Shown: positions 9,101 to 34,640, counted from the stretch's first letter. The stretch is DNA of 64,000 nt from Candidatus Iainarchaeum sp. (GCA_016699555.1 CP064981.1:27456-91455); one strand, 5' to 3'. Made by a program: numbers and translations. The notes: generated by a model from the letters alone, not told the origin.

Positions 9101-9116
9101 AGGGATTAAACCATCC

Positions 9117-12389: not shown

Positions 12390-13688
12390 TTATTCGACCG
12401 GAAGAAATTGTTGCATCCGGTCATAGGGGACATTATACTGCTGTACCGTCATGCACGCATATTTTTCCCCCAAATCGGGCATATTCTTATCCGCGACCAT
12501 ACAGTTTCCAATGAAACTGAAATCATCTGGAGAAAAATAAACCGTATACGGCGCAACCGCAATACGCGCACCCGGGTTGTCCGTATAACCCAAATACTCG
12601 TCTACACGCCCCGTCGCATAATAGGCACGCACCACGTCATCATAGTTGATTTTCCCCGTCTTCACGTAATTATCGGGCATCTGGTCGAAAGGACCATCAT
12701 ACCAGTTATTCGCCAGCACATTCTCGCCTTTCGCGCCCACCAAGAGTTTGCGCTTATTCTCGACATCATGGAAGAAGACCAAATCCGTCCGATTGCCGCG
12801 GATGAGTTTTTTCTCGGGGAGATATTGGTGGAATTGTTCCGGGACAAACACATCCTCATCCAACACCCAATACACACGATTCGTCTTCTGATTATACAAC
12901 AGGAAAAAATTCAATCCACTCTCATCGAACGTCGTGCCGATATATTTTTCCTCTGGCAGGAGCCCGAATGAGTGTGGAGGCGCCAGCCCCACGTCATTGA
13001 GGATGAATTTCACCGTCTTGTTCTCCACGGTAACATCATACTCAAAATCCGAAATCTTTTTCACGAAAACACCATTGGCATCCGTGTACTCGGCACCGTT
13101 CCCAATCCTTTCACTGCCCAATTCCAACGCAGGATTCTCGTCATACACGATATAGCCCATCCCGAAATGACCCGTATCGCGATCCTTGGCGAACAAGGAA
13201 AAGGAACCCTTCACATTATACCCGTGCGCCGTAAAACGGAAATAGAAATAATTCTCGGTGGGATACACCACCACTCTGTCGGGGAGATTGGCAAAAATAT
13301 AATTCAATACCGTCCACGAATCAAAAAGATTCAAGTCCGAGTTAAGACCATCGATGTATTCGAAATTCGTGAGTAGTGACCCATTCGAAGAGCCCGCAAG
13401 CCCGAACGAATTGTTGGCAGGAGAAGACGCCACGGGGAATGAGGGAGAAGAAATGCTCGACAAATTAGATTGAGCACCGCCGGGTGGAGAAGCCGGCGAG
13501 TAGAAAAATATCATATAGCCAAACGCCACGATAATGAGCGCAATCAACACCCATTGATGCATCCCTCCTCCAACGCGCGCAAACGCGCGATCATCCACAC
13601 CAGCCAATCCTTTTTCCATTCCAATCACATCCACTACCGCGTATGCGGGTGCAACATTATTTAATGGCACTCCATGGCCCGGAGTCAC
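12390..13688 (-). CDS. Hypothetical secreted/membrane-anchored protein
   Basis: 432-aa ORF with an N-terminal hydrophobic anchor and a Ser/Asn-rich linker. Confidence 0.5.
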   Translation of the reverse strand: MTPGHGVPLNNVAPAYAVVDVIGMEKGLAGVDDRAFARVGGGMHQWVLIALIIVAFGYMIFFYSPASPPGGAQSNLSSISSPSFPVASSPANNSFGLAGSSNGSLLTNFEYIDGLNSDLNLFDSWTVLNYIFANLPDRVVVYPTENYFYFRFTAHGYNVKGSFSLFAKDRDTGHFGMGYIVYDENPALELGSERIGNGAEYTDANGVFVKKISDFEYDVTVENKTVKFILNDVGLAPPHSFGLLPEEKYIGTTFDESGLNFFLLYNQKTNRVYWVLDEDVFVPEQFHQYLPEKKLIRGNRTDLVFFHDVENKRKLLVGAKGENVLANNWYDGPFDQMPDNYVKTGKINYDDVVRAYYATGRVDEYLGYTDNPGARIAVAPYTVYFSPDDFSFIGNCMVADKNMPDLGEKYACMTVQQYNVPYDRMQQFLPVE

Positions 13689-14401
13689 AATCCAAGCGCA
13701 CGATAGATATCCGAAATCGCATCACGGTGACCGTTCCTCTCTAATGCATCAAAGAAAACAAGCACGCGTGCATCAGGAGTGTTACGTCGAATAGTACGAA
13801 GCAACGTGGGGTCCTTCCAAAATGCGCGCGCCGGCCCTGCAGAGCCGCCATTCGCACGCTTGCAAGCATCGAATAGCCGGGGGACTGCATCCAAGTAACC
13901 CGCTACTTCGCGCGGAGAAAGATCGGGGCTCAATTGTGTTGCCATTTCGGATAGCGTAACGACCGTCTTGGCAGAAATCTCAGGAAACCCGCGCAGCCTG
14001 CCTTTAGGATCTTGCGCATCGGGCTTCCCGTCCAGGGCCTCTACCCACTGCCGTGCCACGCTGCGGACAAATTCTTCGCGCTTAGCAGGAGGGAGGTGAT
14101 TGCCTAAAATAGCATGGTGCTTACCCCCAATCACGTCGACCAAATGCTCAGCCTGCAAATCCTTCACGGTGTATTTCCACAATTCATTCGCGTGCAAAGG
14201 CATTACACGCACCGCCGGGGGCTTACCATTCTTCGGAGGATGGGTGCGCTTCCAGGCTTCTCTGCCTCCAACCCCTAGCGCCGTCGCGACTGCCGCCACG
14301 AGAATCCATTTCTTGGTCCTGGAATTCCACACACGCTTCGTCAGTCGGCGCATGCGCACGAAGCGCGGCTTGCGGGGGGTAGGAGGGGCCATGCGACTCA
14401 C
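13685..14401 (-). CDS. Hypothetical membrane-anchored protein
   Basis: N-terminal basic stretch followed by WILVAAVATALGV; ATGA overlap with the upstream gene. Confidence 0.45.
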   Translation of the reverse strand: MSRMAPPTPRKPRFVRMRRLTKRVWNSRTKKWILVAAVATALGVGGREAWKRTHPPKNGKPPAVRVMPLHANELWKYTVKDLQAEHLVDVIGGKHHAILGNHLPPAKREEFVRSVARQWVEALDGKPDAQDPKGRLRGFPEISAKTVVTLSEMATQLSPDLSPREVAGYLDAVPRLFDACKRANGGSAGPARAFWKDPTLLRTIRRNTPDARVLVFFDALERNGHRDAISDIYRALGL

Positions 14402-14408
14402 AAGCTAT

Positions 14409-15848
14409 TCATGGATTAAAAACATACGTCGTAGGACCGTGTTCCGCTTCGGGACTCGTTGAGTGCTGCCAACCGGGTTCGGTGTACGAGGATGGGGGCA
14501 CCGACTTTCCGTTGCCGGAAAACCCTTGCACCGATTGGTGGATCCAGTCGTTAGGAACATAGTATGTGTCGTCGGGACCGCCATTCACGTGACTATTTCC
14601 CGTCCCAGGAGCGTAACGCGTGTGGTCGGGCGAACTGGGGTTGAAAATGTGAGCGGTGCCGGGACTAACATAATCCGTTGCATCCACGCGCAAACGACCG
14701 CCGGGATTCAATCCAACACCCGGATTTGGCCAAGTGCCTCCCCACTCGGTCGCGTGAAAGAATCCTGGAGGCACATAGGTGGTGTACTCTCCGTAATCTG
14801 AATTCGAGACATGAAACCAGCCCGGGGGCAAATAATTCGTTGCCGAGTCCTCGGGCTCCATCAATCCGCCTCCATTGCTGGAAGGAGGAGAAAGCGTCGC
14901 ATGGAAATAATCCCCCGGAAGATAATTGGTCGTGTTGGGGCCCAGCGCCTTATGTTCCCACCCGGGAGGATGCCATGTCGTAGCAAAGGGGCCAGCCGTG
15001 ATGTGATCCCACCCCGCTGGAGCATAACTGGATGCCAACGGTCCCGCAACCGATTTGTGCTCGTGCGGAGCATAACGCGTAGTGTCCGGACCATATTTGA
15101 TGTGAGTCGCATCCGTGAGACCAGGACCCCAAACATAGGTAGAATTCTGAGCCTGATCCGGGGACTCAAAAATGTGAAAGCCACCAGGTCCAATCAAATC
15201 CGTCTGGTCGGGGCCGGGTTCGCTACCATGGAAGCCGGTGCCGCCAAACCCTCCGCCGGGTGGAAGCCACATCGTCGTGAGTGCTTGGTGATACCAGTCG
15301 GGCCCGACATACACCGTCTGATGGGGCCCGGGAAAATTCTTGTGACTCCAGCCCGGAGGAAAATAGCGAGTGTAATCAGGACCCTGAATCGCTCCGTGCA
15401 CCATATCCGTACGGATGACACGCGTCTTTTCAGGACCCGAAGCCACGTGGACAAGCCACGTATAAGTCGTGTGATCGGGATAGCCAGGATTATAGATATG
15501 ATGAAATACACGCCCCGTGGTGGGAGGCAATTGACGCGTGGCTTCTGTGCCATCGAAGACGTGCAATGTCGTAGGATTCAAGCCCCCGGTGGTATGATCA
15601 ACCGTATTGAAAGGGCCCTGTCCACTCGAAGGAACAGGCTCTCTGCCCGAACCCGAAGGCGGACGCGCGGATTGCAGTTCAATCCCGGGATCAGCCTCCA
15701 AATGCGAATCAGCCATGGGCAACACCACAAGGCCAGTGGACATCGACAACACGGCATCACGAGGAATGGCAATCATCCCTAGCGCCAAAAAAAATAAGCC
15801 AACCACTACTACCGCATACACGATTACTCGCATGAAAAAAACCACCAA
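14409..15848 (-). CDS. Secreted protein made of about 12 tandem 24-aa repeats (GP[DN]xTxY-PPGW-H)
   Basis: N-terminal TM helix; repeated YxPPGWxH / GPDTTRYAP units visible by eye. Confidence 0.5.
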   Translation of the reverse strand: MVVFFMRVIVYAVVVVGLFFLALGMIAIPRDAVLSMSTGLVVLPMADSHLEADPGIELQSARPPSGSGREPVPSSGQGPFNTVDHTTGGLNPTTLHVFDGTEATRQLPPTTGRVFHHIYNPGYPDHTTYTWLVHVASGPEKTRVIRTDMVHGAIQGPDYTRYFPPGWSHKNFPGPHQTVYVGPDWYHQALTTMWLPPGGGFGGTGFHGSEPGPDQTDLIGPGGFHIFESPDQAQNSTYVWGPGLTDATHIKYGPDTTRYAPHEHKSVAGPLASSYAPAGWDHITAGPFATTWHPPGWEHKALGPNTTNYLPGDYFHATLSPPSSNGGGLMEPEDSATNYLPPGWFHVSNSDYGEYTTYVPPGFFHATEWGGTWPNPGVGLNPGGRLRVDATDYVSPGTAHIFNPSSPDHTRYAPGTGNSHVNGGPDDTYYVPNDWIHQSVQGFSGNGKSVPPSSYTEPGWQHSTSPEAEHGPTTYVFNP

Positions 15849-15987
15849 TCCCAGTGATACATCACCCCCGCACTCCTAAATATATAAGTCTTCGGCATAA
15901 TGCGCCAATAGAATAAGACAATTGTTGAATTATCCCCTACTGGCGCAAGGCCAAACCTAATATACGTCGGAAGCCGCAATCATCTGA

Positions 15988-16752
15988 ATGCCCAGGACCA
16001 TTCAAGAGATGCAAACAGAGTTGCAGAAATTGCTCAAGAAACGGGAGAACGAACACCCCTTCGTGCACCTCGCAGCGTTCATGGAAGAGACCGCGGAACT
16101 ATCGCAGGATTTGAGCCAACACCTCGCGGACAAATATCATGCCACTCCAGAAGAAAAAACACAAACCGAAGAACGAATAGGAGATGTGCTCGTGAGCGTA
16201 GCGGCGCTCGCCAATTATCTCGGAATGGACTTGGAATCCGCCTACGAAAAGAGCATCCGAAAAGTACGCGCACGCCATCATACGGAGTGGACGCTGAAGG
16301 ACGCGCTTGCATATCAGGCGGGAGAGAAACACTTCGTTTTTGACTCTCCCACGAATTGGCTGGAACAATTGAAGCTGGAATTCCAGAACATCCCCGTCCA
16401 CATCGATAACGACCTCCGCATATCCGAGAAGTTCCTCCCATGGCTGCAAGAAGGAAAGAAGAAAACCCTCTTCCGATTCGAAAAAAATGCCATTTGCGTC
16501 CCTTCAGCGCCGGAGTTGGTGCTATATGAGAGCAGCGCCGAGCCCTTGCTCACGCTGGGAACCATCGCGCTCACGGGATTCATCATCAAACCCTTCCGGG
16601 AGCTGCATGATGAGGATGCCCGCGCACAGGGATACAATTCCAAAATCGAATTCATCACCGCGATGAAAAACCTCTATGAGCCGCGCGGGTTGACGGATGA
16701 CTCGTTGATTTCCCTCTATCACATCCAGGGATTCAAGACCATGAACGGATGA
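15988..16752 (+). CDS. MazG-like NTP pyrophosphohydrolase fused to an ASCH/PUA-like domain
   Basis: EETAELSQ...EERIGDVLVSVAALANYLGMDLE is a MazG/HisE-like all-alpha NTP-PPase motif. The C-terminal half is ASCH-like (EGKKKTLFRF). Stop overlaps the herA start (ATGA). Confidence 0.55.
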   Translation: MPRTIQEMQTELQKLLKKRENEHPFVHLAAFMEETAELSQDLSQHLADKYHATPEEKTQTEERIGDVLVSVAALANYLGMDLESAYEKSIRKVRARHHTEWTLKDALAYQAGEKHFVFDSPTNWLEQLKLEFQNIPVHIDNDLRISEKFLPWLQEGKKKTLFRFEKNAICVPSAPELVLYESSAEPLLTLGTIALTGFIIKPFRELHDEDARAQGYNSKIEFITAMKNLYEPRGLTDDSLISLYHIQGFKTMNG

Positions 16753-18350
16753 ACGCCATCCAAACGCATAAAATGGTAGCAGGACGTCCATGGTGTATGG
16801 ATGACAAAGAAATAGGCACGGTCATTTCCTCCCTCGAAGGACCTTCTCCCACGGAAGTGGATTTCGTCGTCACGCAAGGAAAGGTGCACCGCGGGCAGTT
16901 CGTGGAAATCCCGTATGCGGATGGGAAGATGATGTGTCTCGTGGAGAACGTCATCAAGACCAACAAATACTTCGAGCGCGCCGATAGCGTCAAGGAATTC
17001 GAGTCGCAAGGGACGAAACTCTTCGAACAGTTCCCCGTGCACGAGTGGGAATACTTGCTTGCGAAGACGAAACCGCTAGGATTGTTCGTGGAAGGAGAAA
17101 AACAAATACGCCGGCCCTCATTCCCACCCTCGCCCGGAAGCAAAGTGTTCAATGCGCATCCCGAGAACATTGTGCAATTCCTCGGACTGGATACCGAAAA
17201 AGGGATGCAACTCGGAAAGCTGGAATTCCATCCCGTGGAAGTGAAAGTGAATCTTTCAAAGCTATTGCAGAAACACCTCGCGATTTTGGCGATGAGCGGA
17301 AGCGGAAAATCCTATACGGTCTCTTGCCTCCTCGAAGAGCTCCTCAATCGCAAGGCCGAGCATGGGCGCGTGGGAATAGTGGCATTCGATGTGCACGGGG
17401 AATACACCAATTTTGCAGAACCCCCATCGGATGCAAAATATACTGATTTCTCCACGCGCACTCGACTCATCCGCGCACGCGATTTGCGGATTGGCGTACC
17501 CAAAATATCCGCAACCCTATTCGGGAGCCTCATGCCCAATGCCTCTCCCGCACAGAAACGCGAACTCGGGAAGATCATCGAGGAGCTGCAGAAGAAGATG
17601 AAAGAAGGATATGGCGCCTACGATTTGAACGACATCCGTGCGGCGCTTCTCGCAGAGCTCAATGAAAAAGAAGGAAAGAATACGACCATCCAGACGCTCT
17701 TGGGATGGTTGTATGAATTAGAAGAGCTGCACCTCTTTGGCAAAGCCGATAATCCATCGCTATTGGACTTGGTGCAGCCCGGGATACTGACCGTGGTGGA
17801 CCTCAACGATGTGCTGTCGCAGAAAAAAAAGCAAGTCATCGTCTCTTACTTGGCCAATCGCCTCTTCAATGAGCGACGCAGCAAGACGATCCCTCTAACG
17901 GTCATCGTGTTGGAAGAAGCCCACAATTTCATCCCCCAAAACACCCCCAAAGAGGGAAGCATGAGCAAGTATGTTTTCCGAACGATTGCGCGCGAGGGAA
18001 GAAAATTCGGCGTGAGCTTGTGCTTGATATCGCAGCGACCGGTGCAGTTGGATACTACTACACTCTCTCAGTGCAATACCCAATTGCTCTTGCGCATTAC
18101 CAATCCCTATGACATCAAGCACATCGGAGAGAGCTCAGAAGGACTCTCGGGAGAAAGCGCATCCATGTTGAATTCCCTGCGCGTGGGAGAAGGAGTATTA
18201 GTGGGAGAAGCCGTGAACGCGCCCGTGTTCTTCAAAGTACGCGAACGCAAATCACAACCCAGCAAGCACGAGGGAACGCTCGAGAAGGCGGGGATCGATT
18301 ATGAAGTCAACGCGGCGAAGAACAGGAAAGAGACGGAAGACTTGCTGTAG
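16749..18350 (+). CDS. herA: HerA DNA helicase/translocase
   Basis: Walker A AILAMSGSGKSYTV, Walker B VIVLEEAHNF, FtsK/HerA-type C-terminal region; 533 aa. Confidence 0.85.
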   Translation: MNAIQTHKMVAGRPWCMDDKEIGTVISSLEGPSPTEVDFVVTQGKVHRGQFVEIPYADGKMMCLVENVIKTNKYFERADSVKEFESQGTKLFEQFPVHEWEYLLAKTKPLGLFVEGEKQIRRPSFPPSPGSKVFNAHPENIVQFLGLDTEKGMQLGKLEFHPVEVKVNLSKLLQKHLAILAMSGSGKSYTVSCLLEELLNRKAEHGRVGIVAFDVHGEYTNFAEPPSDAKYTDFSTRTRLIRARDLRIGVPKISATLFGSLMPNASPAQKRELGKIIEELQKKMKEGYGAYDLNDIRAALLAELNEKEGKNTTIQTLLGWLYELEELHLFGKADNPSLLDLVQPGILTVVDLNDVLSQKKKQVIVSYLANRLFNERRSKTIPLTVIVLEEAHNFIPQNTPKEGSMSKYVFRTIAREGRKFGVSLCLISQRPVQLDTTTLSQCNTQLLLRITNPYDIKHIGESSEGLSGESASMLNSLRVGEGVLVGEAVNAPVFFKVRERKSQPSKHEGTLEKAGIDYEVNAAKNRKETEDLL

Positions 18351-18352
18351 TA

Positions 18353-18901
18353 TCATTTTTTCAAAAAATAATCCAAAATCAATTCCATCCCCGCTTTGCG
18401 TGTCTTTTCTTTCAGCGAGAAAATGGACTCGCTCGCTTCAAGGGCAAATCTCTTCTGCGCGATGACCTCTCCTGTGTCCATGCCTTCATCGATCACATGC
18501 AGCGTGGGACCGCTCTCAAGGGGTTTGGCCTGCAGGATATCACGATAGACCTTTTCGGGCAAGCCCTTGAATTGGGGCAAGAGCGAGGGATGGAGATTCA
18601 GCACCTTGCGCGGGAACACATCCAAGACGCGATTGGAAAAAAGCAAATCGAATTCCCATGCGATCACCACATCCACGCGGTGGCCCATCCACTCCTCCAA
18701 CAGGGCAAACTCAAACGCCTCGTGGGACGGGAAATCTTCTCTTCGGAGCATGCGCACCGGGAACTGATCCGAACGCATATGGCCGCGATTGCATATCACT
18801 TGGACCAATTCCACATCGGGAAGGGGATTGTTCCACCATTGCGCGAGCCAGAAACCCAGCTCGGGAGAAGAAGTGATGACGGCTACGCGGGTCTGGACCA
18901 T
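18353..18901 (-). CDS. purN: Phosphoribosylglycinamide formyltransferase (formyl-transferase domain)
   Basis: NLHPSLLPQFKG and HVIDEGMDTGEVIAQ motifs. Confidence 0.65.
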   Translation of the reverse strand: MVQTRVAVITSSPELGFWLAQWWNNPLPDVELVQVICNRGHMRSDQFPVRMLRREDFPSHEAFEFALLEEWMGHRVDVVIAWEFDLLFSNRVLDVFPRKVLNLHPSLLPQFKGLPEKVYRDILQAKPLESGPTLHVIDEGMDTGEVIAQKRFALEASESIFSLKEKTRKAGMELILDYFLKK

Positions 18902-24167: not shown

Positions 24168-24242
24168 GGCCCCGTAGCTTAGGCTGGATAGAGCGCCAGG
24201 CTTCGGACCTGGAGGTCGGGGGTTCAAATCCCTCCGGGGTCG
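24168..24242 (+). tRNA. tRNA-Arg (anticodon TCG), no encoded CCA
   Basis: Manual cloverleaf: acceptor GGCCCCG/CGGGGUC, D-arm GCUU..GAGC, anticodon stem CCAGG/CCUGG with loop CUUCGGA (U34 C35 G36), T-arm GGGGG-UUCAAAU-CCCUC, discriminator G. TATA-like tttatag lies about 33 bp upstream. Confidence 0.8.
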
Positions 24243-24252
24243 CTTTTTTATT
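24239..24252. repeat. Left 14-bp direct repeat (TSD) gtcgcttttttatt; overlaps the last 4 nt of the tRNA-Arg and its oligo-T terminator
   Basis: Identical 14-mer at 34627..34640. Confidence 0.8.
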
Positions 24253-24284
24253 GGGATATATACAGCTGCCGCGTTTGAGACTTT
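24253..24284. repeat. Left terminal inverted repeat (32 bp) gggatatatacagctgccgcgtttgagacttt
   Basis: Exact reverse complement present at 34595..34626. Confidence 0.85.
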
Positions 24285-24322
24285 TACAACATAATTATCA
24301 GATTAATAGGGCAGTAACATTG

Positions 24323-25528
24323 CTAAAGAGAATCTGTTGAATTATTTTTGTTTGAGATTGAGTTTTCAATATTCCCTACTGGATTTATTTTATTGTAGTG
24401 GTTCCAATCATTTAGCTGTTGTATAATTCTTTCCGGAATTTTCAAGCCAAGTAGGCGATAAATTATATTTAGAATAAGACAATCAAGAAAATATTCAAAT
24501 CGATTTATTGTGTAAAACGGCATTTTTTTACGTTTAACATTTTCAATTATTATTTTTAGCAGTGGTTCTCCATGACTATAATTATTCCTAAGCTTATACG
24601 TCTCTTTAATTGTTTCATAAAATAGTTCCCATTTTAAATCAGTATATTTCCTAATGAAAACTTCAGCCTTTTTAGTAATTGTATCATCTTTAATAGTTGA
24701 AAGCAAATATTCAACATCTTCATCACTCAACTTAAATTCTTCTTTGTACTTCGTTTTTACATCAGTTCTAATTTTATTTTTGACATTTTCAAAATAGCTT
24801 TTATAATCACGCAGATGGGCGTTAATGATCATTTCAAATAAAGCCCATTGAAAAATAGCCGCGTCATGCGATTCCAAAAATTCTTTATTTCTATTAAACA
24901 AAAAATGAGTAAATAGCATTGAACTAATCCATGCAGAATTTTTTTGATATTTATTATCCCCAATTGCATCAACAAGATTTTCAATTTCTAGTCTTGTCAG
25001 CTCAAAATTTAATTTTTTATATCTCAACTTCCTGGATAAAGGGCTTTCTGTTAGATATCCTGTTTGAGTTCTCTCATCAGCAAATAAATACTTCTTCTTT
25101 GTGCCCCCTACTAGAAATTCAATTAGCTGCATTGATGACACTTCATACATTTCAGCTATGGTTAGATAGAAATCAAGTTCATGATTAGGTGTATCTGCGT
25201 TAATTTTTCGATCGTTAATTAAATCGCCAAAGTTGTGGTTTGGTTCTTTGAAGTATTCTATTAATGGAATTTTAAAAATTAAAAAATACTTGTTGTTTAA
25301 TTCATAAAATAAATCTTGGAATTCTGAAGGGTGACGCAAATCAAAGATACTTTTTGCATTGAAATATTTTTGTTCAGGAACAATTACTTTTTTGATCCCC
25401 AACTCGTTTTTACAATAGTTTTGAAAGCTTTCAACCTTAATTAATTCAAAGAAACGCGTTTTTAGTTCAGGTATTTCATTTACTGAATCAAATTGAGCAA
25501 TTACTTTCACGTCTTTTGCATTAGCCAT
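24323..25528 (-). CDS. Casposon cargo protein, possible HEPN-domain (Abi-like) protein
   Basis: C-terminal KLRNNYSHGEP contains an Rx4H HEPN-type motif; otherwise unrecognised; AT-rich codon usage. Confidence 0.4.
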   Translation of the reverse strand: MANAKDVKVIAQFDSVNEIPELKTRFFELIKVESFQNYCKNELGIKKVIVPEQKYFNAKSIFDLRHPSEFQDLFYELNNKYFLIFKIPLIEYFKEPNHNFGDLINDRKINADTPNHELDFYLTIAEMYEVSSMQLIEFLVGGTKKKYLFADERTQTGYLTESPLSRKLRYKKLNFELTRLEIENLVDAIGDNKYQKNSAWISSMLFTHFLFNRNKEFLESHDAAIFQWALFEMIINAHLRDYKSYFENVKNKIRTDVKTKYKEEFKLSDEDVEYLLSTIKDDTITKKAEVFIRKYTDLKWELFYETIKETYKLRNNYSHGEPLLKIIIENVKRKKMPFYTINRFEYFLDCLILNIIYRLLGLKIPERIIQQLNDWNHYNKINPVGNIENSISNKNNSTDSL

Positions 25529-25534
25529 AAATGG

Positions 25535-26533
25535 TCATGGATATTTTAGGAGTTGATTATTTATTTTTACAGTTGAAATATTGCAGTCAATAATATTAGA
25601 TGGTAAATTACATTGAATAATTGTAGTGGTTTTTGATTTTAGGACTCTATCAAACTCACAACTATTGCTAGCAAATGAATTTTCCATGCTATTTATATCG
25701 ATGCACGTCATCGATAGATGAGTCATAATAGCTTCGTCGTTTGTTGCATTATACAGATATATGTTTGCATTTCCATCTCGCACAATGGAACCACGAAATG
25801 GAAAATCATGGACTGTCAAATCGTAAGGGTTTGAAACGAGTTGACTTACTGGCAACATAGTGAAAATGACAACGAGAATAACCGCATAGACTCTCGAGAT
25901 TGATGTATCTTTTGACAACCCATTGAATATTTGTCGTTCCAAGTAATACAGCAACACTACAAATATTGCAAACTTAAGGAAGTCAGTACTGGTGATGACT
26001 AAATAGATTCCCCAGCCAATGAATCCCATTAGCACCAAAAATAATAGTAGACAGATAATCTTGTGTTTTTCGACGAAGTCATTTGCTCCATCCCCTAAAT
26101 TTTTTTGAACTTTCTTTAATTTAGTCTTGAGCTTTTTCAGATACCCTTCTAGGCTGGCCAAATAAATGATTATTTCAATAATTGCTTGAAGTACACTCGA
26201 TATTTTCTTGAATCCTTTATCTAACTCCTCATAGGTTCCGCGCACAATCAGAAATGCAAGTGAATAAGATAGAGTGAAAAAGTTAGTGAACATGACGATG
26301 AAGTTAAACCCATATAACTGGAATTTGTCATTCAGAATCAGTATTGAAGCTATGAAAACCAGTACGTAGGTCAAACCACCAAGCAAAATTACTTCTTTTG
26401 CAAGGTTTGTGGGGGTCGGCTCATCCTTTTCATTCCATTTCTTCGCCAAGAACAACAAGTATCCTGAAATAATCGTGAAAACGACCACCGAAGGAGTTGA
26501 AAAGATGAAGTTCTGAAAAATATCTTCAAGCAT
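25535..26533 (-). CDS. Casposon cargo polytopic membrane protein
   Basis: Roughly 7 hydrophobic helices; no domain. Confidence 0.45.
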   Translation of the reverse strand: MLEDIFQNFIFSTPSVVVFTIISGYLLFLAKKWNEKDEPTPTNLAKEVILLGGLTYVLVFIASILILNDKFQLYGFNFIVMFTNFFTLSYSLAFLIVRGTYEELDKGFKKISSVLQAIIEIIIYLASLEGYLKKLKTKLKKVQKNLGDGANDFVEKHKIICLLLFLVLMGFIGWGIYLVITSTDFLKFAIFVVLLYYLERQIFNGLSKDTSISRVYAVILVVIFTMLPVSQLVSNPYDLTVHDFPFRGSIVRDGNANIYLYNATNDEAIMTHLSMTCIDINSMENSFASNSCEFDRVLKSKTTTIIQCNLPSNIIDCNISTVKINNQLLKYP

Positions 26534-26578
26534 ATAAATGGTAAAATGGCTTCTTTTTATAATCCGAACATGAAAAAA

Positions 26579-27763
26579 TCATTCTTCGCGGACTTTCCCT
26601 AAGGTCTTTTCATATAACTTGAATATTTTTCCACTTTTTGCATTCTTTTTCATGTAATGCAATGTCCCTTTATGCAAACCATGCTCGTATGCTTTATGAT
26701 AGGGAATTGCCAGAATCTTTTGTCGCAATTCCTCTGAATCAACTCTCTTTAATTCAAACTTAGGATTGGTAAAATCAATCTCTCTCTTTTCAAAATATTT
26801 TGTAAGTTCACGTGCTTTAATGAGTATTACATTATGCCAGCTTGACATGCCTCGATCAAATTCAACTTTATTGTTGAATTGTGTTTCAATTTCCTTTAGT
26901 AGCTTCTTTGCACCACTTGGGCGCAATTTTAGATTGTAGTTTTCGGTTCGAATAAAATCTTTTGCGCTGAAAACTTCTTTTTCAATCGCTGAAATAACTG
27001 CTAAATCAATGAGAAAGCGATACGGTTCTTGTAAGTCGTAAGCCAAAGAGTTATTTCCTGAATGTTTTTCATGCATATATCCAACATGTTGATCAAGTCC
27101 GACTGCATTAATGGCCTTTAGGCATTCAGCTTCTAGAATAGAATAGCCATAGTTGAGTAAGCAATTAATTACATCACCTGCACCGCGTGGCTTCTTTTGA
27201 TATTCTCTTGTTTCAAATTCTAACTTTTCTGGGAATATTTTTGTAAGTTCTTGCCAGTAAAAGGAAGCAACTCTCCCCTCAATCATCATAATCTCAGGTA
27301 TATCTTTTACTTGTTCAATCTTATTCCATTCATTACTGAAATCCGTTTTAATTTCAGGATACTTGGGTTTGAGATAATCTAATACTAATTTTGTCCGTGC
27401 AAACTTGGCATTAATTAAAGCTTTTGAAATTTTGACACGTTCAATATAATTTTCATAAATTTTGTACTGATTAAATTTCGTTTGCACATTGGTGCTTTCA
27501 GGAGGCAATAATGTAGTTAGAAGTTTTCCATTCCAGTCTAAGAAAGAAGCCTGAATGCCATGTTTGACAAGCCAACGAATTGCATCTATGGTGATGTTTC
27601 CGTCTTGGCCATAAATAATCACATTATCCACGTCAATTCTTCGAGGTGAATAAATATATTGAGTAGGTTCTTTTCCAAATTCTGAAAAACCGTCTTTGAC
27701 ATGCAGTTTTGCTTTTTCCACTTTCAGATTAATCCCATGGCCATTAAGTAATAACAATTTCAT
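26579..27763 (-). CDS. cas1: Cas1-family integrase (casposase)
   Basis: Cas1 core MMIEGRVASFYWQ (catalytic Glu), DVINCLLNYGYSILEAECLKAINAVGLDQHVGYMHEK (His), LAYDLQEPYRFLIDLAV (Asp); 394 aa with a C-terminal extension as in casposases; no CRISPR array nearby. Confidence 0.8.
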   Translation of the reverse strand: MKLLLLNGHGINLKVEKAKLHVKDGFSEFGKEPTQYIYSPRRIDVDNVIIYGQDGNITIDAIRWLVKHGIQASFLDWNGKLLTTLLPPESTNVQTKFNQYKIYENYIERVKISKALINAKFARTKLVLDYLKPKYPEIKTDFSNEWNKIEQVKDIPEIMMIEGRVASFYWQELTKIFPEKLEFETREYQKKPRGAGDVINCLLNYGYSILEAECLKAINAVGLDQHVGYMHEKHSGNNSLAYDLQEPYRFLIDLAVISAIEKEVFSAKDFIRTENYNLKLRPSGAKKLLKEIETQFNNKVEFDRGMSSWHNVILIKARELTKYFEKREIDFTNPKFELKRVDSEELRQKILAIPYHKAYEHGLHKGTLHYMKKNAKSGKIFKLYEKTLGKVREE

Positions 27764-28119
27764 GCAACTTCACCCTTCATACTTTCTTTTGTTCTGCTAT
27801 ATGCCGCAGCATCACTTCGAATTGACTTTAACCAACCCCTTTGTTCATCTTCAAGTGTAAGAGAAAATTCGACCAAGGCTTTCTTGTATAGCTCAAGCAC
27901 GCCATGCCAACGTGAGGCTTCGAAGAAAGTACTAAATGCAGTTCTTTGATAGTCTTTTATCACCCATTTTAGCCAATGGATTGCTTTTTCGCTTTCAGCA
28001 GTTGCAAAAAGCATTAGGATTAGTTTTCCATATGCTTTGAATATGGATGCCTCGTCTACTTTTTTATCAAACTCGTTAAGTATTTTGTCAAGATTTTTTT
28101 GGACGTATCCCAGCGTCAA
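27760..28119 (-). CDS. Casposon hypothetical protein
   Basis: 119-aa ORF, ATGA-type overlap with cas1. Confidence 0.4.
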   Translation of the reverse strand: MTLGYVQKNLDKILNEFDKKVDEASIFKAYGKLILMLFATAESEKAIHWLKWVIKDYQRTAFSTFFEASRWHGVLELYKKALVEFSLTLEDEQRGWLKSIRSDAAAYSRTKESMKGEVA

Positions 28120-28582
28120 GGTGATTCATTAGTAAAATGGCGGTTGTTTCTAAAAGTTTTTCATTTTTGGTGCGCGCGACTATTCGTTCAACCTTTTCCA
28201 ATGTTTCCCAATTTAATTTTACGCGTTGTACATCTCCTAACTCCTCTAAAGCAACTAATTGTTTCTTTTCATCATCTGACGCAAGTATATCAAGAATTTT
28301 CGAGTAAAATTCGTTTTCATTTGGTAAAGTTGAAAGTGCATAAAAAATTGCATTTTCTCTTTTTTCTTTTATTCCATAAGCTTGGAAGTCATTGAATTTT
28401 ATTCGTATAATCTTCTTGTCAACATCACGCAATTCTTGGATTGCTTTGTAAATTGAGGGTTTTGATCTGCCGAGCGGCATTGCATCGCCAATTTTGCCTA
28501 TTTTTTCGAAGATTTGGTCTGAAGACTGAATCTTCTCTTTCGCCAGTAAGTCGATGATTTCTTGTTTTATGCTATCACGCAT
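28088..28582 (-). CDS. Casposon putative winged-HTH DNA-binding protein
   Basis: N-terminal SIYKAIQELRDVDKKIIRIKF helix-turn-helix-like segment. Confidence 0.4.
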   Translation of the reverse strand: MRDSIKQEIIDLLAKEKIQSSDQIFEKIGKIGDAMPLGRSKPSIYKAIQELRDVDKKIIRIKFNDFQAYGIKEKRENAIFYALSTLPNENEFYSKILDILASDDEKKQLVALEELGDVQRVKLNWETLEKVERIVARTKNEKLLETTAILLMNHLDAGIRPKKS

Positions 28583-28621
28583 GCTCTCACTTCGGTCTCT
28601 TTTGCTCTCACAATTAAGTAT

Positions 28622-28666
28622 AATTACTATAACTTATGCTATCAATTACTATATAATAGTTGCTAT
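28622..28666. promoter_or_regulatory. Divergent AT-rich intergenic region with two imperfect direct repeats (aattactata..tgctat, about 22 bp apart) between the HTH and RHH genes
   Basis: aattactata at 28622 and 28644, tgctat at 28637 and 28661; candidate operator/TATA elements. Confidence 0.3.
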
Positions 28667-28700
28667 ATTCCAGGTCTGCTCCAATGTATGTGGTGATCCC

Positions 28701-28871
28701 ATGAGTGGACGTAAACTTGTCATAACCTTGAATCCAAGCCTTAAACGTGGACTGGAGGAGGCATCAAAGCGCAGGAAATGCTCGCAAGCTGAAATTGTGC
28801 GTGGCCTCCTCTATCAAAATCTTGCCCCTTACTTGAAAGAGGTGGAAGCTGATGCCCAAACGCTTCTCTAA
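28701..28871 (+). CDS. Ribbon-helix-helix (CopG-like) DNA-binding protein
   Basis: MSGRKLVITLNPSLKRGLEEASKRRKCSQAEIVRGLLYQ is the classic RHH beta-strand plus two helices. Start chosen at ATG 28701, not the ORF-track start. Confidence 0.45.
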   Translation: MSGRKLVITLNPSLKRGLEEASKRRKCSQAEIVRGLLYQNLAPYLKEVEADAQTLL

Positions 28872-29484
28872 ACACTACAAAACTTTTTCCGACTGGAAAA
28901 AAGGACGGAAACTAACGAAATATAGTAAGAAAATAATTGAAAATCGAGCCATATTTCCAAAATCTACCTTGAAGAGGCTCAGGACTGGAATCTCCAACTT
29001 TTCCACAAAAAAATGGAATGTATTGAATTCCACTCAAAAAGTGCATCGAACAAATGCATTGAACACACTTTCTGAAATACGGAAAGGAAACTCACTCCTA
29101 AAGACGCTTAAAAAATATGGTTATTCATTAGAAAGAATAAAAGAACACTTAGGAAAAACGATTCATTTCCAAAACAATAAGTGGATTAGTAGATCACGCG
29201 ATTCAATTGAACGTTCAATGGTTATTTATGAAAATGGAAAACGAAAAGCAATTCTTGTTAATGATTCAAAGACTGCATCACGAATTGGAGAGTATTATAA
29301 TTCAGTAAAGAAGTTTTTACAAACAGGAAACGAGAAGGAATTACATAAAATAAACACAAAAATCATCGACTCAAATGGTAACACTCATTACTTAGAAACA
29401 AATCCTAAAAAGATTTTAGAAATTGAAGAAGCAAAGGAAGAACCCGAATTCACAGAAATATATTCAGAGGAAGATTCTCCATGA
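28852..29484 (+). CDS. Casposon basic Lys/Ser-rich protein immediately upstream of HNH and PolB (function unknown)
   Basis: 210-aa ORF overlapping the RHH gene stop and the HNH gene start (operon). Confidence 0.45.
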   Translation: MPKRFSKHYKTFSDWKKGRKLTKYSKKIIENRAIFPKSTLKRLRTGISNFSTKKWNVLNSTQKVHRTNALNTLSEIRKGNSLLKTLKKYGYSLERIKEHLGKTIHFQNNKWISRSRDSIERSMVIYENGKRKAILVNDSKTASRIGEYYNSVKKFLQTGNEKELHKINTKIIDSNGNTHYLETNPKKILEIEEAKEEPEFTEIYSEEDSP

Positions 29485-29813
29485 TGAAGTGTTTGCTGTG
29501 CATTGAAACTGAAGAAACAGTCCCACTTCGATTTGAAATGCACCACCTATCTGGTAGAAAATATTCTGACGAAACAGTTCCACTATGCCCAAACTGTCAC
29601 GCTAAAATAACAAAAATTCAAAACAAATTTCCTCCAAAGATACGTTCACAAAAGAATCGCAAAGACACATTAATTTTCAGTATTACAAGCACAACCGCGC
29701 TCATGAAAACGGGGGCTGAAAACGGCCTTCGTATGCTAAAAGAATTAACGGAGCTGATACAAAATGACTCAAAAAATAGCCGTGAGAATCTTGTCGAACA
29801 AGAAAAACAATGA
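29481..29813 (+). CDS. HNH endonuclease
   Basis: CLLC...HH...VPLCPNCH is the HNH zinc/ββα-Me motif. Confidence 0.7.
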   Translation: MMKCLLCIETEETVPLRFEMHHLSGRKYSDETVPLCPNCHAKITKIQNKFPPKIRSQKNRKDTLIFSITSTTALMKTGAENGLRMLKELTELIQNDSKNSRENLVEQEKQ

Positions 29814-32370
29814 AAAACAAGAGTATATTCCAAAAATTGTCTCTCCATATCAAGGCGTACTCGTTTTTGATTGTGAAACAACAACAGATGCAGTTCAAAA
29901 CCTAAAATTTGGCTCATACCAGTATCGTGTTAATGACATCATTCAAGATATTGGCATTTTTTACAACCCTACTGAGGTAACTGCAGAAGAACTAAACTAC
30001 CTTCAAACTGCTAGCAGTCAAAAACTAATCCAACTGTATACACGCGAACAATTTGTTGCCAAACTAGCTGACTACGCCCTGAAGATACGGGCACTATGTA
30101 TTGGACACAACTTGGTATTTGATATTTCGCGATTATGTGTTGGAACGGGATATTGTAGAGGCGCGTACAACAGCGGATTTTCACTCAAACTATCGGAAAA
30201 CAAAAGTATTCCTCGCATTAAAACAACGCGTATCAATGAGCGAAAAGTATTATTACGATTTGGAAAAGCATTAGATGGCACGAACTTTGGAGGCCATTTT
30301 TTAGATACCCAAACGTTAGCCTCGGCATTATTGGACACTAAACACATTTCATTGAACGCGTTGGCAAAGGAGCTTGGAATCGATGAGCAAAAATTAGAAG
30401 TAGAAAAACATGGAATGATTACACCGCATTATATTGACTATAATTTGAATGATGTGATGCTTACTTATTTGGTTTTTGCAGAACTAAAGAAAAAATATGA
30501 AGAATACGGTCTCAGCTTACCGATAACAAAAGTCATTTCAGGTGCATCCATTGGAAAAGCGTTCCTGCGAAAAATGGGAATAAAGTCTTTCCTTGAGCAA
30601 AACAAAACATTCCCCATGGAAGTATTAGGGCAATGCATGTCAGCCTATTTTGGTGGGCGTTGCGAGGTAAAAATGCGAAAAACGCCTGTACGAACAACAG
30701 TATTAGACTTCACAAGTATGTACCCAACTGTTTGTCATCTAATGAATCTTCAACGATTCATGCTAGCTAAAAGAATTGATACACAAAAAATAAATGTACA
30801 GAAACTATTAGAAGAATTGACCCCTGAAAAATTATTTGATCCAAAAACATGGCCATCACTTCTCATTTTATGCAAAATAAAACCAAACAAGGACTGTTTA
30901 CCCGTACGTAGCGACTATGGTGGAAAAACGCTCAACGTGGGAGTCAATTATTTTACATCAAGTGAATCTTTTTACTATTGGTTGCCAGACTTAGTATATA
31001 GCAAGTTCATAACTGGAAAAACCTCAGTAATTGAGGAAGCTTTGGAATTTGTTCCTGTTGATGTTCAGGAAACGGTAAAACCAATAAGTGTCTTTGATGT
31101 GGAATTTAATCCGTTGAAACATGACTTTATTCATAATCTGGTTCTACAACGAAACAAATTGAAAAAAGTGAATCCCGTTCAGGCGCAGGGATTAAAAATT
31201 TTGGCTAATGCCACTTCTTATGGCATTTTTGTCGAATTAAACCCAGAAAAAGAACCATCCCCACTAACTGTTTATTCGAGAAAAGTTTTTGAAACAAATT
31301 CTATACATGAGCAAGCAGGTGAATTCTTCAATCCGATTGTTGGCGGACTGATTGTTTCGGGGTCAAGGTTGCTATTAGGAATGATAGAGGTTGAGCTAGC
31401 AAAAATTGGCAAGACCCATTATGCGTGTGACACCGATTCAATGTTCGTTCCGCCTGAAACGGCTGATTACTTGCAAGAAAAATTTCAACCTTTATCACCT
31501 TATCAAGGACATATATATTTACACGAGAAGCAGGCAGATCAAACTCCTATATATTTACTAAAGAAGGAGTACGAAAACGTGTGGTTCTATGGTGTGAGTT
31601 CCAAAAGATATGTTCTATTCGAGAAAAAGGGCACGAAACTAAAGATTCTCGACCAAAAAGGAAAGAAAGGATACAAGCTACATGGACTTGGGTATATCCT
31701 CAATCCCTTTGGCAAAGATCCTGATTGGCATAAACAATTCTGGGAAGATGGACTGAAACTGCACTACAATCAGCTATCAGAACAGGATATCATTGCAAAG
31801 TATGGACAATACTATTGTATATCACAATTAACAGTCTCCAGTTGGGATGCTTATCGCCGATTTCGATACTTCAACAAAGGAAAACCTTTTCGAGAGCAGA
31901 TAAAACCGTTCAATTTTATGCTATTGGGGTTTGGTCAACAAAATGATGTCAAACCATTAGCACCTTACACGAAAAACTATCAAGCAATCGTTCACGAACC
32001 ATTTATTGACTACAAAACAGGCAAAACTTTGATTGGGATTGAATATTGGCAAAACTTGGCAGATGTATTTTTCAATTACTTTAATCATCCCGAAGCAAAA
32101 ATGGATGGTACTGTTGGCTTGCTAAGACTTAAGTACGTGACTTCTGACTTGACTGCTTATATAGGGAAAGAAGGGCGCGATATTGACACGCAAATCATGC
32201 GTAAAAGTCCAATTACGGCCGTTATTCCTCAAAAGGATCTGCATACATATGTATGTATGTTGACGAAAGAAGAGGCAAAGCAACTTCATATTTCACGAGC
32301 AACTTTTTATCGCTTGAAAAAGAATCCAGAGAAACTTTCTGTTGCCATAATACAAAAATTGTTACATTAA
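29764..32370 (+). CDS. polB: Family B DNA polymerase with 3'-5' exonuclease motifs (casposon PolB, likely protein-primed type)
   Basis: Exo I VFDCETT, Exo II YNLNDVMLTY, motif A LDFTSMYPTV, motif B KILANATSYGIF, motif C YACDTDSMFV. Confidence 0.85.
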   Translation: MTQKIAVRILSNKKNNEKQEYIPKIVSPYQGVLVFDCETTTDAVQNLKFGSYQYRVNDIIQDIGIFYNPTEVTAEELNYLQTASSQKLIQLYTREQFVAKLADYALKIRALCIGHNLVFDISRLCVGTGYCRGAYNSGFSLKLSENKSIPRIKTTRINERKVLLRFGKALDGTNFGGHFLDTQTLASALLDTKHISLNALAKELGIDEQKLEVEKHGMITPHYIDYNLNDVMLTYLVFAELKKKYEEYGLSLPITKVISGASIGKAFLRKMGIKSFLEQNKTFPMEVLGQCMSAYFGGRCEVKMRKTPVRTTVLDFTSMYPTVCHLMNLQRFMLAKRIDTQKINVQKLLEELTPEKLFDPKTWPSLLILCKIKPNKDCLPVRSDYGGKTLNVGVNYFTSSESFYYWLPDLVYSKFITGKTSVIEEALEFVPVDVQETVKPISVFDVEFNPLKHDFIHNLVLQRNKLKKVNPVQAQGLKILANATSYGIFVELNPEKEPSPLTVYSRKVFETNSIHEQAGEFFNPIVGGLIVSGSRLLLGMIEVELAKIGKTHYACDTDSMFVPPETADYLQEKFQPLSPYQGHIYLHEKQADQTPIYLLKKEYENVWFYGVSSKRYVLFEKKGTKLKILDQKGKKGYKLHGLGYILNPFGKDPDWHKQFWEDGLKLHYNQLSEQDIIAKYGQYYCISQLTVSSWDAYRRFRYFNKGKPFREQIKPFNFMLLGFGQQNDVKPLAPYTKNYQAIVHEPFIDYKTGKTLIGIEYWQNLADVFFNYFNHPEAKMDGTVGLLRLKYVTSDLTAYIGKEGRDIDTQIMRKSPITAVIPQKDLHTYVCMLTKEEAKQLHISRATFYRLKKNPEKLSVAIIQKLLH

Positions 32371-33065
32371 TTTTCAATTTCCTTATCTATTATAGTTATT
32401 ATCTCGTCCAAGTAACGAATAAGCTGATTAAGTGATTCTTCAGTAGCATCGACACCTAACTTTTCTTTATTAGCAATTAATTCCAATTTATCTTTTGCAT
32501 TTTGAAATCTTATTTTTACGCCTAAGAAAATGTCTTTTGCTTCTTCATAGTCAACTTTTGTCGGATTATTGACAAGCAGTATCTTCTTCCCGCCAGTTAC
32601 AAAATCTTCTAAACCTTTCACAACTTCCTCTTGAATATCTAAACTCAATTGGAGATCCGTACGAAGTTGCTGATCATATGTGAGCACTTCTTTTGTTTTG
32701 CCTAAAAGCCACCGCATCTCTGATAATTCCGCCTTTGCTAAAGGAATAATTGCATCAGCTTCATCAAAATGGTTGAATTCTATGTAAGCAAAAATTACTC
32801 CAAGATAATATGCAAAAGAGGCGTGGCGTCTTTCATAATCAATACTAATTTCTTTTACTTTTTCTAATTCTATATTATAATTATTTATTCCTGCTTCTAA
32901 ATTTTGGATTTGCTCTTTTTGGGACTGTGTTTCAAAATAAAGATTTCCTGCAGCAATCAATAGAAATAATAGTATCACTCCGTATATCCCTTGAGTTGAG
33001 GGGTTTTGATGATTTTGCATAGTGCTTGATCTCGTATGGTTTTTTTCGTCCATTGTAACGTTCAC
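32367..33065 (-). CDS. Casposon membrane-anchored coiled-coil protein
   Basis: N-terminal TM helix (IYGVILLFLLIAAGNLYF) plus coiled coil. Confidence 0.4.
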   Translation of the reverse strand: MNVTMDEKNHTRSSTMQNHQNPSTQGIYGVILLFLLIAAGNLYFETQSQKEQIQNLEAGINNYNIELEKVKEISIDYERRHASFAYYLGVIFAYIEFNHFDEADAIIPLAKAELSEMRWLLGKTKEVLTYDQQLRTDLQLSLDIQEEVVKGLEDFVTGGKKILLVNNPTKVDYEEAKDIFLGVKIRFQNAKDKLELIANKEKLGVDATEESLNQLIRYLDEIITIIDKEIEN

Positions 33066-33135
33066 CCAGGCTCAAAACTACGTTCGTTACGTTGATGTTA
33101 CGCTACTACTTATTAAGGGGTTATGCACCCCTTAT

Positions 33136-33387
33136 ATGTACGAACTTCTGAGCTACATTCGAAGAAGCTCAATAAAACGCAAAATTCTACAAAATTTACA
33201 GGAAGCTAAAACTCCAACAGATTTGAAGAAGGCTCTAGGGGTTCATAGGGAAAGTATCTCAAGGGCACTATTAGAGTTGGAGGAAAGAGGACTAGTTGAA
33301 TGTCTGACCCCAGACCAACCAAATTATCGCTATTACAAAATTACAGAAAAAGGAGATAAACTGTGTAAGCAGCTGAAAAATTACTGA
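33136..33387 (+). CDS. Small winged-HTH transcriptional regulator (PadR/ArsR-like)
   Basis: MYELLSYIRRSSIKRKILQNL...RALLELEERGLVEC; start at the internal ATG 33136. Confidence 0.45.
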   Translation: MYELLSYIRRSSIKRKILQNLQEAKTPTDLKKALGVHRESISRALLELEERGLVECLTPDQPNYRYYKITEKGDKLCKQLKNY

Positions 33388-34508
33388 ATTAGAACATGAT
33401 CCTCATCTAGTGAAGAACTCCAAACTTCGCTTTTCCATTTTTTCTTCCTTTTTGTTGGCATGTAAAAATTGTGGCTATCTTCCTCGATTTGTTTTAGCAT
33501 TTTTCTAATATTCTTCTCAAGTTCTGTTTTTGGTTTATACTTATATATTTTGCCATAAGCATTTGGGATCTTTTTAGCAATTTTTTTAGCCCACTCCACT
33601 TTCGGAATTTCAATTTTGGGGTCATATACCTTGATTGTTGCTAAAATATCTTTTTTTGACTTATTAGTTCTCTTAATTTCCTTAATGCTAATTTCTTTAT
33701 TGATTAGTTCTGATAACAACGGAATTGAAAAATCAACTGGCACCGAATCTTCAAAATTTTTCTTCCAAATAATAACTCTTCGCTTATCAATTAAACCAGC
33801 AGACACTAAATCATTTACAAATGAAATTACAGATTTATCATAATCAAGAACTAAGTAGTATTGAATGCCAGGAATCCTATATCTTCCAAGCAGTTCTTTT
33901 ATGGCTTGCTTCTTTACAGCGTCCTTGCCTTGTAAATTGATAATCTCATGGTCTCGAAATAGATTGAATTGATTTTTGTTAAAAAGAATTTCAAATGCTT
34001 CTTTCTCCGACTCGCCTTCAACCAGAATATAAAATTTAGGCTTTAAATCTTTTTGAAGTTTACCTAAACTAACAGTAAACTTGCTTACACCTTGAAGTAA
34101 TAAACCACTCCAGACTAAATGATTTGTTAATTGCATACCCTCATGATAATGCATCCTATCGTCAGTAGTGTAGTTATCTACCCACCTTACAGAAGCCCAG
34201 TGTACTTCAATAAATGAAAGAGATAATTTTACCAGTATTTCAACGTAATACTGATTTTGCAAATCAAATAGATATTGCACTGAATCAATAAAATTGTTTA
34301 AAAGTGTTTTTAGTTTTGGACAACTATCCATTGTCCCCCTATGTCCAAATACACAACTTCTCCCTCTTTTTGGATAACATGCGGGAAGATGACCTCCCAG
34401 GTGGGTTTTTAGATCTTCTAAAGTGTTAACATTTCTGAAGTCTAACTCTTGATTCATTGCCATCCAAAAAATTTTCAGCGACTTCGCATTGACAGAAACA
34501 TCTTTCAT
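33381..34508 (-). CDS. Casposon cargo protein with a C-terminal Toprim-like domain (OLD/DUF4435-like)
   Basis: FYILVEGESEKEAF (Toprim Glu) followed about 55 aa later by YYLVLDYDKSV (DxD); N-terminal Cys/His-rich segment. Confidence 0.4.
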   Translation of the reverse strand: MKDVSVNAKSLKIFWMAMNQELDFRNVNTLEDLKTHLGGHLPACYPKRGRSCVFGHRGTMDSCPKLKTLLNNFIDSVQYLFDLQNQYYVEILVKLSLSFIEVHWASVRWVDNYTTDDRMHYHEGMQLTNHLVWSGLLLQGVSKFTVSLGKLQKDLKPKFYILVEGESEKEAFEILFNKNQFNLFRDHEIINLQGKDAVKKQAIKELLGRYRIPGIQYYLVLDYDKSVISFVNDLVSAGLIDKRRVIIWKKNFEDSVPVDFSIPLLSELINKEISIKEIKRTNKSKKDILATIKVYDPKIEIPKVEWAKKIAKKIPNAYGKIYKYKPKTELEKNIRKMLKQIEEDSHNFYMPTKRKKKWKSEVWSSSLDEDHVLIQ

Positions 34509-34594
34509 TTAACAAGCAACTGTTTTTCTAATTTAATCTTATATGGTATTGATGAGAAAAAAATAGCCCCACACCATTACCAAATTATGTTGTG

Positions 34595-34626
34595 AAAGTC
34601 TCAAACGCGGCAGCTGTATATATCCC
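34595..34626. repeat. Right terminal inverted repeat (32 bp), exact reverse complement of the left TIR
   Basis: aaagtctcaaacgcggcagctgtatatatccc. Confidence 0.85.
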
Positions 34627-34640
34627 GTCGCTTTTTTATT
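34627..34640. repeat. Right 14-bp direct repeat (TSD) gtcgcttttttatt
   Basis: Identical to 24239..24252. Confidence 0.8.

Follow-up and report, generated by a model that had tools for sequence, protein, structure and literature searches.

The cargo protein T401, encoded on the minus strand at positions 24323–25528 of a 64,000-nucleotide stretch of DNA from Candidatus Iainarchaeum sp. (GCA_016699555.1, CP064981.1:27456-91455; this whole stretch is referred to as the window, and positions are counted from its first letter), can be read, with about even chances of this being right, as an RNase in which a very divergent HEPN domain, formed by the C-terminal half, is gated by the N-terminal half, and which plays an abortive infection (Abi)-like, anti-competitor or addiction role for the mobile element that carries it. 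This element is a 10.4-kb family-2 casposon with clean bounds (window 24253–34626). Casposons are self-replicating transposons, from which the CRISPR adaptation module is presumed to descend. Mechanistically, the all-alpha C-terminal half would be a very divergent HEPN-type domain, in which R314-N315-x3-H319, located where a long helix ends and the loop after it begins, would form a metal-independent endoribonuclease site that, by analogy to other HEPN enzymes, may be completed across a dimer and leave 2′,3′-cyclic phosphate ends. The alpha/beta N-terminal half, as the proposed regulatory or sensor domain, would keep this nuclease silent until a trigger appears, with infection or a competing element as the candidate triggers. 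T401 could thereby benefit the casposon as a module that consists of one gene and serves in abortive infection or in conflicts between elements, or possibly in addiction. We infer this HEPN fold, RNase activity, N-terminal regulation and biological role from the invariance of R-N-x3-H, the Asn right after the Arg, the helix-end position of the motif, an invariant Ex3[K/R] and an Abi-like architecture, as well as from a match to a Csm6-like model, the cargo context, the use of the same slot for defence genes in a sister casposon, a Toprim protein at the opposite end, a homolog next to a type IV secretion system (T4SS) module and the precedent of HEPN cargo in other casposons.

T401 is a real protein-coding gene, because the chance of finding 401 open codons at the base composition of the element is ~3e-13 and because full-length homologs of 401 and 403 amino acids (aa) exist. 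The product of the ATG-to-stop open reading frame (ORF) corresponds exactly to QQR92680.1 (IPJ89_00335), which is annotated as a ‘hypothetical protein’; the 1.05-Mb contig that encodes it belongs to a metagenome-assembled genome of Candidatus Iainarchaeum (DPANN). Its GC content is 28.7%, as compared to a casposon average of 34.7%, and it may stem from a source of even lower GC than the casposon core. The family is very small. When 1.84 billion cluster representatives were searched exhaustively with HMMER, P0002 (31% identity, E 7e-30) was the single further representative to emerge, and when 5.8 billion proteins were searched with profiles, the only additions were P0003 and P0004, which are both close to P0002. 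Word-indexed searches with the single protein as well as with two- and three-sequence profiles (E<=10) retrieved solely the T401 family itself, DNA-level pattern scans of metagenome and viral contigs yielded no new members, and the C-terminal domain had no tblastn match in 72,556 plasmids. The family alignment consists of three sequences (T401, P0002 and P0003), which represent only two independent lineages. T401 is an extremely lineage-restricted two-domain protein. It is an accessory cargo of the variable arm between Cas1 and the left terminal inverted repeat (TIR) of the casposon, with 26 bp separating its stop codon from this repeat.

Active HEPN domains feature an Rx4-6H motif with a polar residue (N, D or H) after the Arg, which is located where helix 3 ends and in the loop to helix 4 (Anantharaman et al. 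2013, PMC3710099). In T401, Rx4-6H occurs exactly once, as R314-NNYS-H319 (codons at 24572–24589, minus strand), with N315 as the polar residue directly following the Arg and with G320 and P322 next, where the helix breaks. The sequence-only reading had described the protein as ending with KLRNNYSHGEP; this string is present, but at residues 312–322, with 79 residues still to follow. It had also proposed conservation of Rx4H in homologs as a test, and this came out in its favour, with R314, N315 and H319 all being invariant in P0002 and P0003 at ~30% overall identity. In the three-sequence alignment, 26% of the positions are invariant, including three of 16 Arg, five of 35 Asn and two of eight His residues, and these residue-type conservation rates give a joint chance of 0.0067 for the invariance of R314, N315 and H319. 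The extended pattern RN-x-[I/V/Y]-[G/S]-H common to all members was found in 0.12% of shuffled T401 sequences, and R-N-x3-H is the sole Rx4-6H that all family members share. By these alignment statistics, conservation of R-N-x3-H is beyond chance. A second invariant pattern, E289-x3-R293 (Ex3[K/R]; codons at 24650–24664, minus strand), lies within the most conserved block of the protein (aa 283–301); Ex3[K/R] is, however, frequent in helices and not diagnostic.

The domain layout was derived from AlphaFold (AF2) models of low confidence. The N-terminal half (aa 1–195; 24944–25528, minus strand) is predicted by DSSP to be alpha/beta and matches no family, whereas the C-terminal half (aa 196–380; 24389–24943, minus strand), the candidate HEPN-like region, is predicted to be all-alpha in both models. 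In the two AlphaFold runs, the alpha/beta part extends over aa 1–190 and the all-alpha part over aa 198–380. The motif falls between predicted helices 281–312 and 321–331, inside an all-alpha region of ~180 aa. In both AF2 runs a long helix ends with R314, while H319 belongs to a loop that also includes G320 and P322, with a local predicted local distance difference test score (pLDDT) below 50. As far as such models allow, the layout of T401 resembles that of Abi-type HEPN proteins, which combine a variable N-terminal domain with a C-terminal HEPN domain (Anantharaman et al. 2013, PMC3710099). Like the Abi-type HEPN RNases AbiD/AbiF (= Abi_2), AbiJ, AbiU2 and AbiV (PMC3710099), T401 would thus carry a helical R-[N/D/H]-x3-H domain behind a variable N-terminal domain, and it is encoded on a mobile element without an obligatory partner gene. 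Unlike these RNases, it shows no detectable similarity to the Abi models of PADLOC and Pfam and has an archaeal host and a casposon as its vehicle.

An important question is whether T401 is a HEPN protein at all, and a number of results weigh against it. Library scans covered all T401 family members, each as the whole protein, as separate domain halves and as a 92-aa fragment centred on the motif. None of the HEPN-clan or Abi models in Pfam, NCBIfam, PHROGs and PADLOC gave even a suggestive match to any of the three members, and for the described Abi families (AbiD/F, AbiJ, AbiU2, AbiV and others) the PADLOC and Pfam models remained without a match at E<=10 in T401 as well as in its relatives. 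The sole exception is the PADLOC model PDLC01163 (‘CARF, Csm6-like’; E 0.018, domain alone 0.0022), in which the C-terminal, i.e. HEPN-side, third of the model aligns with T401 residues 224–372. This match is marginal, it was obtained with T401 only and is absent from P0002 and P0003, and it may reflect a shared K/N/I-rich composition. Sequence and profile searches of the PDB remained empty, whether they started from complete T401, from either of its halves or from P0002. The fold was not predictable, since both AF2 runs were of low confidence (pLDDT 38.8 and 43.2), and the Foldseek comparison that the sequence-only reading had called for returned noise only. The Rx4H motif by itself is not beyond chance, as 28% of T401 shuffles contain Rx4H, 62% contain Rx4-6H and 5.9% contain R[NHQD]xxxH, and invariance across just two lineages carries little statistical weight. 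Moreover, E289 would lie far from R314 if residues 281–312 are a single unbroken helix, in which case Ex3[K/R] would not supply the acidic residue of a HEPN domain. A match of P0002 to the HEPN family DUF3644 was discounted, as it concerned the N-terminal half, was sub-threshold and was absent from the other members.

The main alternative is that T401 is not a HEPN protein but an unrelated orphan with alpha/beta and helical parts, for example a regulatory, DNA-binding or structural accessory factor of mobile elements, with the conserved R, N and H serving in functions such as binding of a ligand or nucleic acid or helix capping. We regard this as a serious possibility, if one of somewhat less than even probability. 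Of the HEPN-containing models, ~40 in Pfam and dozens in PADLOC, none shows profile-level similarity to any of the three members, low-confidence models and Foldseek noise lend no structural support to a HEPN fold, the motif is frequent by chance with a conservation backed by two lineages only, and the most conserved blocks of the family are residues 283–301 and 344–365 rather than the motif. Against this alternative, the complete canonical pattern—an Arg, a polar Asn, a small residue before the His, a predicted helix end and a predicted all-alpha domain—is retained in both lineages. The mobile and defence-rich context also suits a nuclease toxin, and HEPN families are notoriously hard to detect by sequence-to-profile methods (PMC3710099). 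The original proposal of a HEPN-domain, Abi-like cargo protein therefore survives in part, namely in the conserved R, N and H and in the cargo position, but not in any HEPN or Abi profile match beyond the marginal Csm6-like one; ‘HEPN’ is used here as a term reached by reasoning, and ‘Abi-like’ refers to the architecture only.

The same Csm6-like match raises the alternative that T401 is a Csm6/Csx1-like CARF–HEPN effector, activated by cyclic oligoadenylate (cOA) from a type III CRISPR system. With such proteins T401 shares a size of about 400–460 aa, an alpha/beta N-terminal half followed by a helical C-terminal half (in the low-confidence model) and an RN...H motif ~60–90 residues from the C-terminus; its only library match is to the ‘CARF, Csm6-like’ model, and the Csm6 HEPN domain and Can2 were among the noise matches in Foldseek, with E >3. 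Unlike Csm6/Csx1, however, T401 has no CARF signature. Its N-terminal half matches none of the many CARF models in PADLOC nor those in Pfam, a PDB profile search with this half was empty, and the Csm6-like match is confined to the C-terminal part. Comparison of the C-terminal profile with TtCsm6 by hhalign gave a probability of 0.12, which also speaks against a HEPN domain in general; TtCsm6 (from plasmid pTT27) itself falls under PADLOC models other than PDLC01163. A type III CRISPR context is missing as well, as no CRISPR array or cas10 was seen in the 64-kb window or adjoining the T401 homologs (non-tRNA RNA genes were likewise not seen in the window). A cOA-activated effector therefore appears very improbable.

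The surroundings of the homologs bear on whether T401 acts alone. In all five P0002/P0003 loci (L023–L027), the gene is followed after ~50 bp by a 42-aa DUF7557 gene (L023 11259–11387; L025 7585–7713; with equivalents in L024, L026 and L027) and then by NucS. By inspection, DUF7557 looks ribbon–helix–helix-like and resembles small antitoxins of this type; T401 could be the toxin of a two-gene toxin–antitoxin pair with DUF7557 as the antitoxin in the relatives. We consider this improbable. In the window, the T401 stop codon is directly followed by the 26 bp that lead to the TIR, which leaves no room for a DUF7557-like antitoxin behind it, and the whole element has no DUF7557-like gene. No antitoxin model of PADLOC or NCBIfam matches DUF7557, and the gene after it is in every case that of NucS, a repair nuclease with a housekeeping role, to which DUF7557 may belong instead. 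No partner gene is common to the window and the homolog loci. This lack of a shared neighbour, the 26-bp distance between T401 and the TIR and the absence of a CRISPR array from the window speak more for a self-contained module of one protein than for a classical toxin–antitoxin pair or a cOA-dependent CARF–HEPN effector. In L023, a conjugation-type module (699–5365; TrbC/T4SS pilin, a TraC-like protein and a VirB4/TraG-like DUF87 ATPase, together with a TrmB regulator) lies ~4.6 kb upstream of the P0002 homolog, which may border on or lie just within an integrated conjugative element.

The casposon that houses T401 had been recognized in the sequence-only reading, and its repeats, target-site duplication (TSD), Cas1 and family B DNA polymerase (PolB) are indeed all present. 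Family 2 casposons integrate into the 3′-distal part of a tRNA gene or into an intergenic region (PMC4779613). Here, the integration target is tRNA-Arg (TCG; 24168–24243, plus strand; ARAGORN, Rfam tRNA 62.8 bits), the final 5 nt of which lie within the left TSD GTCGCTTTTTTATT (14 bp, 24239–24252), with a perfectly matching 14-bp copy on the right (34627–34640). Between these duplications, the element is delimited by 44-nt TIRs: the left one (24253–24296) begins with GGGATATATA and was found in a repeat search to be 98% complementary to the right one (34583–34626), i.e. the two pair at 43 of 44 positions with a single mismatch.

The core genes are equally characteristic of family 2. The casposase, a Cas1 homolog (26579–27763, minus strand; Pfam Cas_Cas1, E 3.7e-63), is 49–56% identical to Cas1 of Methanolobus and Methanosalsum casposons, its nearest relatives. 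The 868-aa PolB (29764–32370, plus strand; PHROG DNA polymerase, 5e-9) has the motif C ACDTDS (aa 554–559) and is 40% identical to a Methanolobus casposon PolB; the PolB_CDTDS group is that of the polymerase of the AciBoo (Aciduliprofundum) casposon (PMC7544198). At its C-terminal end (aa 836–866), PolB carries a Cro/C1-type helix-turn-helix (HTH; Pfam HTH_26, E 6.7e-4, under the gathering score). The family-2 core also includes two HTH proteins and an HNH endonuclease (PMC4779613), and three small genes of the element, o105, o210 and o110 (28554–29813, plus strand), have tblastn matches in all five sister loci (L001–L005); o110 with its CxxC...HH...CxxC is HNH-like, with the HNH and HTH identities coming from motif inspection without a profile match. 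The TIR terminus GGGATATATA is shared with the Methanolobus casposons L001 and L004, and the latter has the same geometry, with a 14-bp TSD overlapping the 3′ end of a tRNA, in this case tRNA-Leu. Among the Methanolobus loci L002, L003 and L005, several have two or three copies of Cas1 and PolB within ~20 kb (L003 Cas1 copies at 497–1255, 10001–11158 and 17625–18782), which indicates tandem casposon arrays like those of Methanosarcina.

Overall, the element resembles the casposons of family 2 that have been described from Methanosarcinales and, as AciBoo-C1, from Aciduliprofundum boonei (Krupovic et al. 2014, 2016) in its Cas1, CDTDS PolB, small core genes, TIR terminus and 14-bp TSD at a tRNA 3′ end. 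It differs from them in that its host belongs to DPANN (Iainarchaeota), its target is tRNA-Arg and not tRNA-Leu, and both of its arms hold different and mainly orphan cargo. At 34.7%, its GC content is sharply bounded against the 51–52% of the Candidatus Iainarchaeum surroundings; milder GC dips occur in the host sequence outside the casposon, at window 43000–45000 (0.43–0.46) and 8000–10000 (0.48). The GC contrast, the perfect TSD, the TIR match at 43 of 44 positions and the closest Cas1 and PolB relatives being found in Methanolobus and Methanosalsum together suggest that the casposon inserted recently at tRNA-Arg after a transfer between phyla, its donor being of low GC and related to the casposons of Methanosarcinales. 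In the searchable literature, we found no report of a casposon in a DPANN or Iainarchaeota genome.

What the slot between Cas1 and the left TIR is used for can be seen in the sister elements. This interval measures ~1.5 kb in L001 and ~7.4 kb in L004 (Methanolobus bombayensis; TIRs at 3338–3371 and 18527–18560), where it holds, at 11363–18336, a complete type I restriction–modification system (HsdS, HsdM and HsdR) and a NERD nuclease. As this is the same slot that is occupied by T401 and the neighbouring TM332 gene in the window, the place of T401 is one at which defence genes have demonstrably landed in this lineage of casposons. TM332 is an orphan multi-pass membrane protein with ~6–7 hydrophobic segments (25535–26533, minus strand) and no family match in any library, with a Cys/Asn-rich C-terminal tail. 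Its gene ends 6 bp upstream of the T401 start on the same strand, and for this reason the two are probably co-transcribed.

Beyond T401 and TM332, five more genes are without a counterpart in the sister casposons by tblastn, and all seven therefore represent element-specific cargo of the two arms. Two overlapping small ORFs are located upstream of Cas1 (o119, 27760–28119, and o164, 28088–28582, both on the minus strand); o119 overlaps Cas1 and has a weak PADLOC AbiTii match (E 0.0036). In the other arm, o232 (32367–33065, minus strand) is an orphan with one predicted transmembrane segment, and o121 (33022–33387, plus strand) is a winged-helix transcription regulator (Pfam HVO_A0261_N, 7e-9, HTH_45 and MarR_2), the best PADLOC matches of which are to the winged-helix part of Csa3/CARF3 models. 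The gene for o121 converges on that of a 375-aa protein, Toprim375, with a 7-bp overlap at the 3′ end of the latter, and o121 could regulate this nuclease.

Toprim375 (33381–34508, minus strand) is the Toprim-like protein that had been noticed from the sequence at the other end of the element. This assignment holds, with a borderline score for Pfam OLD-like_TOPRIM (23.1 bits, E 1.1e-4, at a gathering cut-off of 23.2), a match to PADLOC AbiLii (E 1.7e-4), and both the catalytic Glu (VEGESE, aa 163) and the DxD motif (LDYD, aa 221) being present. While these features are shared with OLD-family and AbiLii nucleases, library scans of the Pfam, PADLOC and NCBIfam type found no ATPase domain in Toprim375 or elsewhere in the element. 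In the absence of the ABC-ATPase domain of OLD-family nucleases or of a partner gene providing it, Toprim375 is therefore a stand-alone, Toprim-only protein (OLD-like/AbiLii-like) and not a full OLD nuclease. The idea that T401 and Toprim375 might have an N-terminal domain in common (HEPN/Toprim-NTD1) was dropped, as no similarity was found. The element thus holds nuclease-type cargo at both ends.

Defence or addiction cargo had been described in the sequence-only reading as rarely reported for casposons, which is a fair statement with the qualification that examples are on record. HEPN cargo has been reported in Met2HA1B4-C1 of Methanosarcina (PMC4779613) and NitEve-C1 of Thaumarchaeota (PMC6563490), AbiF-like, RES and OLD-family cargo was already published in 2016 and 2019 (PMC4779613, PMC6563490), and OLD nucleases are known in casposons (PMC6563490). 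The concept of HEPN, Abi and OLD cargo on casposons being established, the gain from T401 is incremental. Like the HEPN cargo of Met2HA1B4-C1 and NitEve-C1, T401 is an accessory, non-core casposon gene with a HEPN-type motif; in contrast to those proteins, which were recognized by standard domain searches, T401 was not. With only one other cluster found in the exhaustive HMMER search, T401 therefore belongs to a family separate from the casposon HEPN proteins reported so far. What is new here is modest: the T401 orphan family, maybe a HEPN lineage of its own, the presence of a family-2 casposon in DPANN/Iainarchaeota and the signs of its recent acquisition.

Tentatively, and with less than even confidence in the proposal as a whole, T401 and its two relatives may be seen as an unrecognized HEPN family limited to archaeal mobile elements, which would combine an alpha/beta sensor of unknown type with an RNase domain and give the casposon a single-gene abortive-infection or anti-competitor function; its carrier would be the first documented casposon of DPANN (Iainarchaeota), recently acquired across phyla from a low-GC donor of the Methanosarcinales type and equipped with defence-like nucleases at both ends. 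Casposon cargo bears on the exchange of parts between transposons and defence systems, and with its perfect TSD, near-perfect TIRs and nuclease-type cargo in both variable arms, this element is a clean and apparently recent example. If T401 is indeed a HEPN RNase, it would provide a compact new RNase scaffold and would mean that orphan proteins which domain libraries do not pick up can still serve as modules of defence or as toxins.

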